In this document: one piece after another, positions 5,383-34,868 of the stretch | How the letters are laid out: every line of letters begins with the position of its first letter | Position numbering within the stretch: position 1 is the stretch's first letter | From: an uncultured Alphaproteobacteria bacterium | GTDB taxonomy: Bacteria > Pseudomonadota > Alphaproteobacteria > Rhizobiales > Hyphomicrobiaceae | Direction: 5' to 3' | DNA length: 64,000 nt | NCBI GenBank assembly: GCA_963696075.1 | Contig: CAVOJD010000036.1 | Coordinates: 2,199 to 66,198, forward strand | Notes under the pieces: generated by a model | Told to the model about the DNA's origin: nothing | The model's database searches: none | What the model saw: only the letters and a program-made list of their open reading frames with translations | Made by a program: the position numbers and the translations under genes

Positions 5383-5880
5383 ATTTCTCAAAGACAAGCG
5401 GTTCTACGAGGATTTCCAGTATCAGGCTCAGAGCTGGGAGGACGAGCGCCGGGTGATTGCCAAGGTCGAATGGCATCCGGGCGAGTTCTTCCCCCGTGTC
5501 GGCTTCATCGTCACCAACCTGCCGATGGAGCCGGATTGGGTGGTGCGGTTCTACAATCAGCGCGACACCGCGGAGCAGCACACCAAGGAAGGCAAATACG
5601 CCTTCCGCTGGACGCGGTTATCCTGCAAGCGGTTCCGTGACAACGAGGTCCGGCTGCAACTGCATGCGCTTGCCTACAATCTGGCCAATGTCCCGCGCTG
5701 CATCGAATTACCCCAGGCGATGGTCGATTGGTCGCTGACCAGCTTGCAGCTCAAGCTGATCAAGAGGGGCGCCCGCGTCGTCCGCCACGCCCGCGCCATC
5801 ACTTTTCAGTAGGCCGAGGTCGCGGTGACCGGCCCAAGCAGAACGAAAGCGGCACGACAGGTTTGTCCGCCGTGCTGAAG
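5383..5880 (+). pseudogene. IS1380-family transposase remnant (C-terminal part only, with in-frame stop)
   Basis: Translation FYEDFQYQAQSWEDERRVIAKVEWHPGEFFPRVGFIVTNL...FYNQRDTAEQHTKEGKYAFRWTRLSCKRFRDNEVRLQLHALAYNL...RHARAITFQ*AEVAV matches the conserved C-terminus of IS1380-type DDE transposases. The N-terminal two thirds are absent, and a stop sits where homologues read on (TFQLAEVAV). The 3' limit is uncertain. Confidence 0.75.
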
Positions 5881-19205: not shown

Positions 19206-19255
19206 GAACGCTCACTCACCGGCCGGCGCCCTCCCCCGCAGTTGGACCGGACAGG

Positions 19256-19609
19256 CCCACGCCTTTCCGGTTCAGCTTTCCGCGAAACGGCGCAACAGCC
19301 TGATTGGGCCTCTCGATTTCATGATCCATGGTGGTCGAGACGCGAAATCCCGACCGGCATCGGCTCGTTTGTTTTTCCATTTCATTAGCCACCCCCACGC
19401 CGTCATGGCCGCGACGGCGGCCATCCACGCGCGCCTCGGCAAACGAGGCGCTTGCGGTGGAGTACATATTCCGCGGCAACGACATAGTGACCCGACAAAC
19501 CGCGTGAATGGAAACGCCCGTGGATGGCCGCCGTCGCGGCCATGACGCGTTGGGAAGGGAAAGCGGGGTCTACTCCTAGAGCGTTGGAGTTAGACCGGAC
19601 AGGTGTGGG
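19256..19609. mobile_element. MITE-like non-coding element, copy 1 (354 bp)
   Basis: Terminal inverted repeats CCCACGCCTTTCCGGT and ACCGGACAGGTGTGGG (14/16 complementary). 5-bp direct repeat ACAGG at 19251-19255 and 19610-19614. Homologous to 28573-28924. Confidence 0.75.
19401..19547. repeat. 29-bp perfect inverted repeats bracketing an 89-bp core (inside MITE copy 1)
   Basis: CGTCATGGCCGCGACGGCGGCCATCCACG at 19401-19429; its exact reverse complement at 19519-19547. Each arm also contains its own hairpin ATGGCCGC/GCGGCCAT. Confidence 0.9.
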
Positions 19610-19656
19610 ACAGGCCCTCGCTTGGCCGTTGCCTCATCTGATGCGCCCGTGCCGCA

Positions 19657-28467: not shown

Positions 28468-28572
28468 GACGTAATCGCCGCGCATCGCATCGATCGAGTA
28501 CGGCAGCGACCCGGCCCGCATCCAGCGCTTCTCTTGAACAACGAACCCCTCGTCTGTCATCCTCGGGCTTGT

Positions 28573-28924
28573 CCCACTGCTGTCCGGTTCAGCTTTCCGC
28601 GAAACGGCGCAACAGCCTGATTGGGCCTCTCGATTTCATGATCGATGGTGGTCGAGACGCAAAATCCCGACCGGCTTCGGCTCCCTCATTGTCCATTTCA
28701 TTTCCCACACCCATCGTCATGGCCGCGCAGGCGGCCATCCACGGGCATGTCCAATCCCGCGGCTTATCGGGGTCACGAAGTCGTTGCCGCGAAACATGTA
28801 CTCCGTAGCCGGCGCCTCGTCTGCCGAGGCGCGCGTGGATGGCCGCCTACGCGGCCATGACGGCGTGGGGAGGGGAAGCGCGGTCTAAGCCTAAAGCGTT
28901 CGAGTTAGACCGGACAGTAGTGGG
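28573..28924. mobile_element. MITE-like non-coding element, copy 2 (352 bp)
   Basis: Terminal inverted repeats CCCACTGCTGTCCGGT and ACCGGACAGTAGTGGG (15/16). 5-bp direct repeat CTTGT at 28568-28572 and 28925-28929. Left arm differs from copy 1 at 3 positions over the first ~100 nt. Confidence 0.75.
28716..28861. repeat. 28-bp inverted repeats bracketing a 90-bp core (inside MITE copy 2); core inverted relative to copy 1
   Basis: GTCATGGCCGCGCAGGCGGCCATCCACG at 28716-28743; reverse complement with 1 mismatch at 28834-28861. The core aligns to the copy-1 core only after reverse complementation. Confidence 0.9.
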
Positions 28925-29030
28925 CTTGTCCCGAGGATGACCACTGAGAGGCAGTGAGACCGTTGAGGGGCAGCGATAAAGCCGAAACCGCCTATCAGCC
29001 AACGATCCTCACCGCGAATACGAACACGTC

Positions 29031-29178
29031 AAAGGCAAAGCCTTCTGGGAGCATTGCGACCCGGCGCCTCGCTCCCGCGATCCGGATGCGCAGCATCCGC
29101 AGCGGCAGCGCAAAAATGAGCCGCCCCCGCGGAGGGCCCGGTCGCGAACGCGACCGGAATTGCCCGCGAGCGAAACAA
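29031..29178. repeat. degenerate solo unit of the 106-bp repeat family, with an inserted hairpin
   Basis: GGCAAAGCCTTCTGGGAGCATTGCGACCCGGCGCC and CCCGCGGAGGGCCCGGTCGCGAACGCGACCGGAATTGCCCGCGAGCGAAACA align to the array unit at 34363-34868. It ends a few nt from the pepF stop codon. Confidence 0.55.
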
Positions 29179-29182
29179 CTCC

Positions 29183-31063
29183 CTAAACCCCGGCTTTTTC
29201 CATGGCCTCGAGTTCGTCGATCATGTCTTCGATCACGCTCAGCCCCTTGTGCCAGAACTCAGGGCTGGACGCATCGAGGCCGAACGGCGCGAGCAGCTCC
29301 GAATGGTGTTTCGACCCGCCCGCACTCAGCAAGTCAAAATACTTCGCCACGAAATCCGGATGCGCATCCTCGTAAAGCTTGTAGAGCGAATTCACGAGGC
29401 AATCACCGAACGCGTAGGCGTAGACATAGAACGGCGAGCGGATGAAATGGCCGATATAGGCCCAGAACACCTCATACCCGTCCTTGAAAACAATCGCATC
29501 GCCAAGGCTCTCGCCCTGCACGCTCATCCAGAGCTCGTTGATCTGATCACTCGTCAGCTCCCCCTCACGCCGCGCGAGATGGACCTTACGCTCGAATTTG
29601 TAGAAAGCGATCTGGCGCACGACCGTGTTGATCATGTCCTCGACCTTGCCCGCGATCAGCGCCTTGCGCTCCTTCGGGTCCGTCGTCTCTTTGAGCAGCG
29701 CCTTGAAGGTGAGCATCTCGCCAAACACCGACGCCGTCTCAGCGAGCGTCAACGGCGTCTGCGACAACAGCATCCCCTGCTTCGCCGCCAGCACCTGATG
29801 AACGCCGTGTCCGAGTTCATGCGCAAGCGTCATCACGTCCCGCGATTTGCCGAGGTAATTCAGCAGAACGTACGGGTGCACCGACGGCACCACCGGATGC
29901 GAGAACGCGCCCGGCGCCTTTCCAGGCCGCGTCGGCGCATCAATCCATCTCTTGTCGAAGAAATCCTTCGCGATGTCGGCCATTTGCGGTGAGAACCCAC
30001 CATAGGCCGACAGCACCATTTCGCGTGCCTCGGGCCAGGCAATCACACGCTCCGGCTTATCGGGCAGCGGTGCATTGCGGTCCCAGTGGGCCAGCTGATC
30101 CATGCCCAGCCACTTCGCCTTCATCCGGTAGTAGCGGTGCGAAATCGAGGGGTATTTCTCCGTAACCGCATCGACCAGCGCCTCGACCACTTCCCCCTCG
30201 ACCCGATTGGCGAGATGGCGGCTATCCGCCACATCCTTGAAACCCCGCCACCGGTCGGAGATCTCCTTGTCCTTGGCGAGCGTATTGGTGATCAACGTGA
30301 ACACGCGGATGTTGTCACGGAACGTCTTGGCCAGCGCGTCGGCGCCCGCCTTGCGTCGCGCTTCGTGCTTGTCCATCAACAGGTTGAGCGTTGGTTCCAG
30401 TGTCAACGGTTCCGCCTCACCATCGACATCGAACCTGAGAGACGCCATCGTATCGGAGAACAGACGATTCCAGGCCCCGGCCGCCGTCTGCGACTTATCC
30501 GTGAACAGTTGTTCGAGTTTTTCATCGAGCTGGAAGGGCTTTTCCTTCCTCAGATCATCGAGCCAGGGCTTGTAATGCTTGAGCTTGCCATCCCCGAGCG
30601 CCACGCTAAGCGCCTCATCGTCGATCTGGTTGAATTCCAGCTCGATAAAGATGAGCTCGCGCGAAATCTCGGTCAGCTGGGCGATCGTATCGCCGTAGAA
30701 CTTGGCGCGCGCCTGGTCGGACTGGTCTCCGGCATAGTAAAGCCCGGCATAAGAGCCGAGCCGGCTCATCAGCTCCGCCACCTCCTCATAAGCCCGGATC
30801 ATGTCGGCAAGTTTTGCCCCATCGCGGCCAAGACCGACGATTTTGCCCTGGTAGGCAGCCTTGAGGCTTTGCGCCATCTCCCGCGCGCGCTCAATGTCGC
30901 GCTTGACCTCCGCCGCCTCAGGTCCGACGTAGAGATCGTCCAGGTTCCACTCCGGCATCTCGCCAAGTTCCGCCCCGCCCGGTGCCGCGCCCGCCTCCCC
31001 CGCCGGCGCGTCAGCTGCGGCAATTGCAATCAGGGGCAGATGAGGGTGCTCACGAAGAGGCAT
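29183..31063 (-). CDS. pepF: oligoendopeptidase F family (M3 metallopeptidase)
   Basis: Zinc motif TLAHELGHGVH. Length and overall pattern are typical of the PepF family. Confidence 0.85.
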   Translation of the reverse strand: MPLREHPHLPLIAIAAADAPAGEAGAAPGGAELGEMPEWNLDDLYVGPEAAEVKRDIERAREMAQSLKAAYQGKIVGLGRDGAKLADMIRAYEEVAELMSRLGSYAGLYYAGDQSDQARAKFYGDTIAQLTEISRELIFIELEFNQIDDEALSVALGDGKLKHYKPWLDDLRKEKPFQLDEKLEQLFTDKSQTAAGAWNRLFSDTMASLRFDVDGEAEPLTLEPTLNLLMDKHEARRKAGADALAKTFRDNIRVFTLITNTLAKDKEISDRWRGFKDVADSRHLANRVEGEVVEALVDAVTEKYPSISHRYYRMKAKWLGMDQLAHWDRNAPLPDKPERVIAWPEAREMVLSAYGGFSPQMADIAKDFFDKRWIDAPTRPGKAPGAFSHPVVPSVHPYVLLNYLGKSRDVMTLAHELGHGVHQVLAAKQGMLLSQTPLTLAETASVFGEMLTFKALLKETTDPKERKALIAGKVEDMINTVVRQIAFYKFERKVHLARREGELTSDQINELWMSVQGESLGDAIVFKDGYEVFWAYIGHFIRSPFYVYAYAFGDCLVNSLYKLYEDAHPDFVAKYFDLLSAGGSKHHSELLAPFGLDASSPEFWHKGLSVIEDMIDELEAMEKAGV

Positions 31064-34362: not shown

Positions 34363-34868
34363 GCAACCGCGACCCGCGCCTTTGGCGCACCCACGCGGAG
34401 GGTCCGATCGCGACTACGACCGGAACAGCCCGTGCGCGAAATCACCTCGGCGGCAAAGCCGCCGGGGAGCAACCGCGACCCGCGCCGTTGGCGCGCCCGC
34501 GCGGAGGGCCCGATCGCGACTGCGACCGGAACAGCCCGTGCGCGAAATCACCTCGGCGGCAAAGCCGCCGGGGAGCAACCGCGACCCGCGCCGTTGGCGC
34601 GCCCGCGCGGAGGGCCCGGTCGCGACTGCGACCGGAACAGCCCGTGAGCGAAATCACCTCGGCGGCAAAGCCGCCGGGGAGCAACCGCGACCCGCGCCGT
34701 TGGCGCGCCCGCGCGGAGGGCCCGGTCGCGACTGCGACCGGAACAGCCCGTGAGCGAAATCACCTCGGCGGCAAAGCCGCCGGGGAGCAACCGCGACCCG
34801 CGCCGTTGGCGCGCCCGCGCGGAGGGCCCGGTCGCGACTGCGACCGGAACAGCCCGTGAGCGAAATCA
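34363..34868. repeat. tandem array of a 106-bp GC-rich structured unit (4.8 copies)
   Basis: Unit starts at 34363, 34469, 34575, 34681 and 34787, an exact 106-nt period. Copies 3 and 4 are identical, copy 2 differs from them at 2 positions, and copy 1 is the most diverged. The last copy is truncated at GAAATCA. Confidence 0.95.

Follow-up and report, generated by a model that had tools for sequence, protein, structure and literature searches.

The window (the whole stretch of 64,000 nucleotides analysed here, C36:2199-66198) carries two copies of an element that is most probably a non-coding MITE of about 350 bp with the terminal inverted repeats (TIRs) of ISRel1-like IS4-family insertion sequences (IS). 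Its ends are of the IS4Sa type (CA------T). We give this reading a probability of roughly 90%. A preliminary description of the same DNA reported related, "MITE-like" elements near 19251 and 28573, placed both in convergent intergenic regions and saw no autonomous partner within the window. Elements are present at both places, each between convergent ORFs, and the window indeed holds no partner. The term MITE-like is supported by the TIRs, the target duplications, a copy number of about 19, a length that leaves no room for a transposase gene, congeners that lack the element and have shorter spacers, and full-length IS with the same ends in other genomes.

The true limits of the element are CAC...GTG. 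Copy 1 occupies 19258-19607 (350 bp) and copy 2 28575-28922 (348 bp), both on the forward strand, so the two copies earlier sized at ~353 bp are real but slightly shorter. A 9-bp direct repeat, GGACAGGCC, flanks copy 1 at 19249-19257 and 19608-19616, and copy 2 lies between two copies of GGCTTGTCC at 28566-28574 and 28923-28931. The left TIR of copy 1, CACGCCTTTCCGGT (19258-19271), pairs with ACCGGACAGGTGTG at 19594-19607. The terminus CACNNCTGTCCGGT is kept at both ends of the element, with 38 terminus matches falling within known copies, and it also bounds IS4-family elements of 1265-1278 bp. Over the 16 nt originally taken as TIRs, the ends of copy 1 (CCCACGCCTTTCCGGT / ACCGGACAGGTGTGGG) are complementary at 14/16 positions and those of copy 2 (CCCACTGCTGTCCGGT / ACCGGACAGTAGTGGG) at 15/16, exactly as described. 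The proposed start at CCCAC, however, does not hold, since the CC and GG belong to the target: some copies have non-CC base pairs beside CAC, with the flanks GCCTGTGGC and GCCCCAGCC in this genome and GGGGCAATC, GGACACAAT and GGTAAACTC in others.

The 5-bp direct repeats ACAGG and CTTGT that had been noted around the two copies are the middle of the 9-mer. Copies borne by REP-like repeats fit a duplication of 5, 7 or 9 bp equally, because their target reads GG-N5-CC and the element then seems to read CC...GG. The length is settled by three copies at other sites, where perfect 9-bp repeats (GGACAGGCC, GCCTGTGGC and GCCCCAGCC) go with CAC...GTG limits. With the earlier boundaries, two of these three would need mutated termini. 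Among the 18 full-length copies in the genome, 12 have perfect 9-bp direct repeats (three of them at non-REP sites), two match at 8/9 positions and four have perfectly inverted flanks. The internally deleted copy has GCACAAGGC on both sides, which brings the perfect repeats to 13 copies. Duplications at other copies, which were to be checked, are thus present, but they measure 9 bp and not 5 bp.

In the four copies with inverted flanks, the 9-mers are GGCTTGTCC...GGACAAGCC, and all four read TGTCAT...GGCTTGTCC (element) GGACAAGCC...ATGACA. In the usual inverted REP pair (+ then -), these sequences form the outer halves. We infer that such flanks arose by deletion, through recombination between like-oriented copies in the two REPs of one pair. 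Inverted 9-mer flanks are also common in other genomes, around MITEs and full IS alike (~40% of pairs among the matches listed). At two places, C8:321384-322099 and C6:579442/579448, two elements are separated by a single 9-mer, an arrangement that fits re-insertion into the duplicated 9-mer, re-creating the preferred target. A longer element that includes the flanking hairpin halves was considered as well, the inverted repeat of copy 2 reaching 33 nt. It was rejected: there is no outer duplication, and 18 hairpins occur free of the element.

Counting copies by BLASTN had been proposed as a check. Searching both window copies against the source assembly (5.4 Mb, 38 contigs, 96.5% complete) returned 18 full-length copies of 347-351 bp, one internally deleted copy (C26:58538-58781) and one end fragment (C31:82790), for a total of ~19 copies. 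This number of repeats is far above chance. The elements are small, and tblastn with the partner transposase described below gives no match inside them. Copy 1 belongs to subfamily alpha and is 95-98% identical to nine other genomic copies. Copy 2 belongs to a more diverged subfamily, gamma, in the assembly-wide comparison, its nearest copy being C9:352458. Members of the alpha subfamily are 95-99% identical to one another, which suggests that they spread in a burst not very long ago.

The usual target, GG-N5-CC, is the loop of a REP-like hairpin (TGTCATCCTCGGGCTTGTCCCGAGGACCCAT). Fifteen of the 18 copies are inserted in the loop of the palindromic repeat TGTCATCCTCGGG-CTTGT-CCCGAGGA, which continues (CCCAT/TGACA) after CCCGAGGA, or lie beside another copy. 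Copy 2 splits such a hairpin. Its left half (GTCATCCTCG + GGCTTGTCC) lies at 28556-28574, the last 9 nt being the left duplication, and the right duplication together with the right half (CGAGGATGAC) at 28923-28941. A further 18 hairpins in the genome are uninterrupted, often as inverted pairs ~120 bp apart, and these are paralogous empty sites. At copy 1, the stretch 19240-19255 (AGTTGGACCGGACAGG) matches the right subterminal sequence of the element, AGTTAGACCGGACAGG, at 15/16 positions. It is probably left over from an older end and was included in the target when this copy inserted.

A genome from another genus of the same family (G012) contains seven copies of a 1265-bp IS with 54% amino-acid identity. 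They are inserted in a different REP hairpin, CGTCATCGCGG-AGCGATGCT-..., with 9-bp repeats or in the inverted form. The target loop is AGC-N3-GCT in that genus and GG-N5-CC here. As the G012 IS uses a different REP hairpin, the comparison suggests that the geometry of the hairpin weighs more in target choice than its exact sequence.

The interior of the element explains why the two window copies seemed to diverge after the first ~100 nt. The divergence is real when the copies are compared as written, but its cause is an inverted core of ~100 nt between internal inverted repeats. In an alignment on both strands, the core of copy 2 is 83% identical to that of copy 1 when reverse-complemented and 65% as written. 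In copy 1, the left arm of the internal repeat (19394-19433) is a REP unit and itself a hairpin, ATGGCCGC-GACG-GCGGCCAT. It is 40 nt long and 90% complementary to the right arm at 19515-19554, and the core between them (19434-19514) has orientation A. In copy 2, the left arm, again a REP unit (28715-28746, 32 nt), is 94% complementary to the right arm (28831-28862), and the core (28747-28830) lies on the reverse strand relative to copy 1, orientation B. Each arm of these 32-40-nt repeats follows the pattern ATGGCCGC-NNNN-GCGGCCAT.

Both orientations occur among the 18 copies (11 A, 7 B). The core of C7:78701 (A) is 99% identical to that of C6:442490 (B), and the arms of the two are of the same beta lineage. 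This flip is independent of the split between alpha (A) and beta (B), so that the orientation has changed at least twice. In C2:51546 and C37:22263, an alpha left arm (99%) is joined to a beta core and right arm. Both are chimeric copies whose parts meet at the left REP unit. The internally deleted copy, C26:58609, has kept a single fused REP unit and lost the core, and in C6:711425 the core is partly palindromised. Inversion, deletion and exchange have all taken place at one set of self-palindromic repeats, a pattern better explained by homology-driven recombination or template switching than by a dedicated invertase.

The two orientations, the repeated changes between them and the bracketing inverted repeats could also be read as a working invertible switch, operated by a site-specific recombinase and controlling, for example, an outward promoter, with the MITE as its vehicle. 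We consider this improbable. The copies occupy 18 unrelated intergenic sites that, to judge from their locations, share no neighbouring recombinase or gene. A scan of copy 1 for promoters and terminators found nothing, including no sigma-70-like promoter. The same repeats have also given rise to a deletion and to chimeras, the usual products of homology-driven or template-switch events. Most flips are old, as shown by the many substitutions that separate cores of opposite orientation.

The MITE resembles the IS in its terminal ~32 nt and nowhere else, its interior being unrelated; the first 32 nt of the MITE and the end of the Aquibium IS agree at 29/32 positions. The inner module consists of two inverted hairpin units of ~40 nt that are ~80 nt apart, a doublet belonging to a REP family resident in this genome. 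Units of this family (GTCATGGCCGC-NNNN-GCGGCCATCCACG) number ~45 in the genome. Of these, 37 are inside MITE copies and eight are free, as doublets or singles. The free units (~41 nt, CCCCACGCCGTCATGGCCGC...CATCCACGCGCG) are located at C6:782275/782396, C15:292125/292243/292720, C15:37201 and C30:23700/23854. Each insertion of the MITE into a REP-like hairpin splits a second REP family.

These features raise the question of whether the element is instead a structured repeat of the REP, BIME or REPIN type, which would owe its spread to a RAYT (Y1) transposase or to recombination rather than to a DDE enzyme. The element does sit in REP clusters and hold a REP doublet, its REP units stand alone in this and related genomes, and the whole of it is predicted to fold as one long nested hairpin (-221 kcal/mol, z = -11.3). 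However, a search of the 96.5%-complete assembly for RAYT genes (Y1_Tnp, PF01797) gave no match, and neither exact 9-bp duplications nor ends identical to those of IS4-family elements are features of RAYT-mobilised REPINs. In addition, the arms of the element have no match elsewhere among the sequences retrieved (genomes of the family and metagenomes), whereas the REP units are widespread. A REPIN-type origin is slightly less probable still than the switch.

If the element is an IS4-family MITE, it may have become the main vehicle that amplifies this REP family in a genome where no RAYT was detected. An IS4-type transposase would then spread REP doublets by hitch-hiking and seed recombinogenic palindromes, and the doublet might still flip or be deleted at a measurable rate. 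We put this forward as a tentative proposal, one that is itself rather doubtful. Were it true, it would amount to a RAYT-independent route of REP proliferation.

The autonomous partner was sought by scanning one genome per species with the terminus CCCACNNCTGTCCGGTYNARCT, which returned more than 114 stretches, most of them in Alphaproteobacteria among the matches listed. These include Bradyrhizobium, Mesorhizobium, Rhizobium, Aquibium, Hoeflea, Inquilinus, Roseibium and many MAGs. Many matches lie at contig ends, as expected of a multi-copy IS. Paired ends among the matches listed fall into two size classes, MITEs of 200-450 bp and IS of 1265-1278 bp. Examples of the ~1270-1278-bp elements are three copies in Bradyrhizobium sp. 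SZCCHNR1015 and one each in Aquibium carbonis and a Hoeflea sp. Exactly 9-bp direct repeats flank 20 of the 52 end pairs in other genomes (among the matches listed); of the remaining pairs, just two show a flanking repeat of any kind, one of 3 bp and one of 1 bp.

The long elements contain a single ORF that encodes a transposase of 394-424 amino acids. The partner transposases match NF033592 ("IS4 family transposase") with 263 and 245 bits (cut-off 115), as well as PF14294 (DUF4372) and PF01609 (DDE_Tnp_1), and the Y-2-R-3-E-6-K (YREK) motif is readable in two of the proteins as YRRRWAIELFFRWVK and YEARWQIELFFKWIK. In a tblastn search of annotated plasmids, ISRel1 of Rhizobium etli came out as the nearest named relative, with 62.5% amino-acid identity; ISRm16, at 39%, is more distant and ends in CAGGGCTGTCCGG. 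The end of ISRel1 reads ...AACCGGACAGCAGTG, followed by CT and not GG. On the R. etli plasmid p42a, only one end of ISRel1 is recognisable and no duplication is readable.

According to the published description (PMC2266710), elements of the IS4Sa subgroup have ends of the form CA------T, are 1150-1750 bp long and are flanked by direct repeats of 8-10 bp. The terminus CACTGCTGT has C1, A2 and T9. The direct repeats are exactly 9 bp in 20 outside pairs and in 13 copies here, and the partner-type elements, at 1265-1278 bp, encode a single-ORF DDE transposase with a YREK motif. Judged by ends, repeats, size and motif, these elements match the published IS4Sa description.

In the source genome, tblastn with two partner transposases gave a single match, to amino acids 337-392, at C6:579467-579634. 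It is part of a remnant of ~190 bp (C6:579448-579634) that consists of the transposase C-terminus and its own end, CCCACGCCTGTCCGGTTCAGCATA. The coding match lies 19 nt inside this end, an arrangement also seen in intact elements, and the end is similar to that of the IS in G012. The remnant adjoins a MITE copy (C6:579089-579442), and what separates their two ends is a single 9-mer, GGCTTGTCC. In a search of the genome for a second partner end with at most two mismatches, only the C31:82790 fragment and the C6:579448 remnant were found. Neither the 96.5%-complete assembly (38 contigs) nor five congeners contain an intact partner IS. As the assembly holds no intact partner transposase, the MITE copies are probably stranded at present.

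The element had earlier been linked to the IS1380 family, as a MITE with CC ends and 4-5-bp duplications moved by resident IS1380 elements. At face value the ends do start with CC and a 5-bp repeat flanks both window copies, and the genome contains eight intact IS1380-family transposase genes and several remnants, one of them in the window. When the resident elements were tried as partners, however, all eight intact copies were found to end in CCTAGCCCGAACTTCTCCC or CCCTATCTATTCACCGCAT, unrelated to the MITE end CCCACNNCTGTCCGGT. Neither Cc/g ends with 4-5-bp repeats nor ends shared with an IS1380 element were found. Wherever an insertion lies outside a GG-N5-CC target, its ends read CAC and its duplication measures 9 bp, and all full-length elements with the same ends (among the matches listed) encode an IS4-family transposase. 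The IS1380 affiliation is therefore rejected as very improbable.

None of 40 sampled relatives, among them the five congeners, yielded the full element, and its left arm had no match in 200 further genomes of the family (51 genera) or in a scan of metagenome contigs. Presence at orthologous sites in distant relatives, named earlier as an observation that would speak against a MITE, was thus not encountered in 40 + 200 genomes. Only the ~30-nt internal hairpin unit matched among the 40 relatives; it is abundant in some other genera of the family, G010 and G012 each giving 37-43 matches. Synteny of the flanking genes is kept in four congeners at site 1 and in two at site 2. The orthologous intergenic spacers there measure 60-125 bp, compared with ~470-760 bp here, and are thus ~350-700 bp shorter. 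Empty sites, which had also been suggested as evidence, are accordingly represented by these short spacers and by the 18 paralogous hairpins; the flanking genes of the congeners are 70-84% identical, too diverged for a base-exact orthologous empty site. On this comparison, the element is an insertion and not a conserved gene. A function-conserved, immobile family of small-RNA genes, to which the strong predicted secondary structure and the intergenic location would be suited, is as improbable as the IS1380 affiliation, given the absence from syntenic congener sites, the target duplications and transposon ends, and the lack of any relevant Rfam family at E<=1 in or around either copy.

A mechanism for the IS4-family MITE can be proposed. 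The DDE transposase of an ISRel1-like IS, supplied in trans, would bind the CACNNCTGTCCGGT ends, cut the MITE out and paste it into a 9-bp staggered cut with the loop of a GC-rich hairpin (GG-N5-CC) at its centre. Such a hairpin would usually be one of the REP-like palindromes between convergent genes, and insertion would duplicate the 9 bp. The internal REP units are palindromic in themselves as well as inverted relative to each other, so that recombination or template switching may have occurred between them, turning the core round at least twice, removing it once and giving rise to the chimeras.

MITEs and mobile insertion cassettes of the IS4 family are a known category, an example being the IS231-derived MIC231 of Bacillus cereus. 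Like MIC231, the window element is short and non-autonomous and has IS4-family ends, and it was probably moved in trans in the same way. Unlike it, MIC231 belongs to the IS231 subgroup, with CAT ends and 10-12-bp repeats, and comes from a different host phylum. MIC231 also has neither the REP targeting nor the nested REP doublet that are both found here.

The inner module resembles REP doublets and REPINs in that two inverted hairpin REP units enclose a short spacer, and such units are also free in this genome and in related genera. In contrast to REPIN systems, no RAYT gene was found in the genome, and 37 of the ~45 REP units ride inside the MITE rather than alone.

With ISRel1 (Rhizobium etli CFN42 p42a) and the ISRel1-like IS of Bradyrhizobium sp. 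SZCCHNR1015, Aquibium carbonis and Hoeflea sp., the element shares the terminus CAC(T/G)GCTGTCCGGTT, and with the ISRel1-like elements also the 9-bp duplication at GG-N5-CC hairpin loops. It differs from these IS (1265-1278 bp, with a transposase of 394-424 amino acids) in that only the ends are shared and the source genome has no intact IS.

The closest parallel in targeting is ISRm22 of Sinorhizobium meliloti, an IS4-family element with all its copies inserted at the palindromy axis of REP sequences (Tobes & Pareja 2006, PMC1525189) and belongs to the IS4Sa subgroup (De Palmenaer et al. 2008, PMC2266710). Both are IS4-family elements inserted at the axis of REP hairpins, often in REP clusters between convergent genes. 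In both, a minority of copies lacks matching direct repeats (4/18 here); for three such ISRm22 copies, recombination between copies was proposed (PMC1525189). Unlike the window element, a derivative of 350 bp that encodes no protein, ISRm22 is autonomous. The direct repeats of ISRm22 are 6 bp in the published description, on which our comparison is based, against 9 bp here.

We found no published description of this particular element. IS4-family insertion in REPs (PMC1525189, 2006) and the IS4Sa signature of ends and duplications (PMC2266710, 2008) were already known. What is new is the placement of the element in the right family, the finding that the ISRel1-like clade and its many MITEs duplicate 9 bp and target hairpin loops, and the nested, recombining REP doublet, with the MITE as the main carrier of that REP in the genome. 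The annotation is corrected in family (IS4/IS4Sa instead of IS1380), boundaries and duplication length. With ~19 copies and recombining internal palindromes, the elements are likely to be assembly-breaking, rearrangement-prone sites. They offer a concrete case in which most copies of one genomic REP family travel inside a MITE, and they extend the REP targeting of ISRm22 to a widespread ISRel1-like clade and its MITEs across Alphaproteobacteria.

In the genome that carries the window, eight transposase genes of the IS1380 family are intact (C1:29984, C1:37545, C17:5258, C27:6759, C24:17861, C6:439933, C24:30061 and C1:12060; Cn denotes contig n). They fall into at least three types and are accompanied by remnants, including that at about 5393-5815 of the window. 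The terminal inverted repeats of these resident elements read CCTAGCCCGAACTTCTCCC or CCCTATCTATTCACCGCAT. One intact copy (C6:439933-441147) is located 1.3 kb from a copy of the MITE, and its ends are unrelated to those of the MITE.

The hairpin targeted by the MITE, TGTCATCCTCGGGC(T/G)TGTCCCGAGGACCCAT, occurs in the same genome as inverted pairs with a spacing of approximately 115-120 bp, and such pairs also form an array in which they are repeated three times in tandem, at a period of approximately 305 bp (pairs and array at C9:351720-352348, C15:336915-337054 and C6:285334-285469). The family is BIME/REPIN-like. A search of the genome for a RAYT found none.

The 16 nucleotides to the left of MITE copy 1 (window 19240-19255, AGTTGGACCGGACAGG) are identical at 15 of 16 positions to the right subterminal sequence of the element; copy 1 seems to have inserted into a scrap of an older end. 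In the copy at C6:711425-711787, the core matches the two orientations almost equally well (78% and 74%) and is partly palindromised, as if by template switching within a hairpin.

The intergenic region of MITE copy 2 contains a member of a further dispersed repeat family of approximately 55-155 nt (window 29040-29195), with matches at C2:233314, C6:353734, C15:148119, C10:183271 and C29:344316. It also matches a tandem array with a 106-bp period at window 34600-34865 (C36:36798-37063).

A MITE of 259-263 bp, unrelated to that of the window but with identical termini, is present in stretches L110 (320-578) and L063 (Hyphomicrobiaceae MAG bins.509). Since this element also holds one REP unit, GTCATGGCCGC...GCGGCCATCCACG, REP capture by MITEs with these termini may be recurrent.

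A 1265-bp ISRel1-like IS is present in seven copies, with 9-bp repeats (L159, L162-L164), in a genome from another genus of the family. Its target is a REP hairpin unlike that of the window's genome, CGTCATCGCGG AGCGATGCT TCGC..., and the target specificity seems to be either set by hairpin shape or co-evolved with the local REP.
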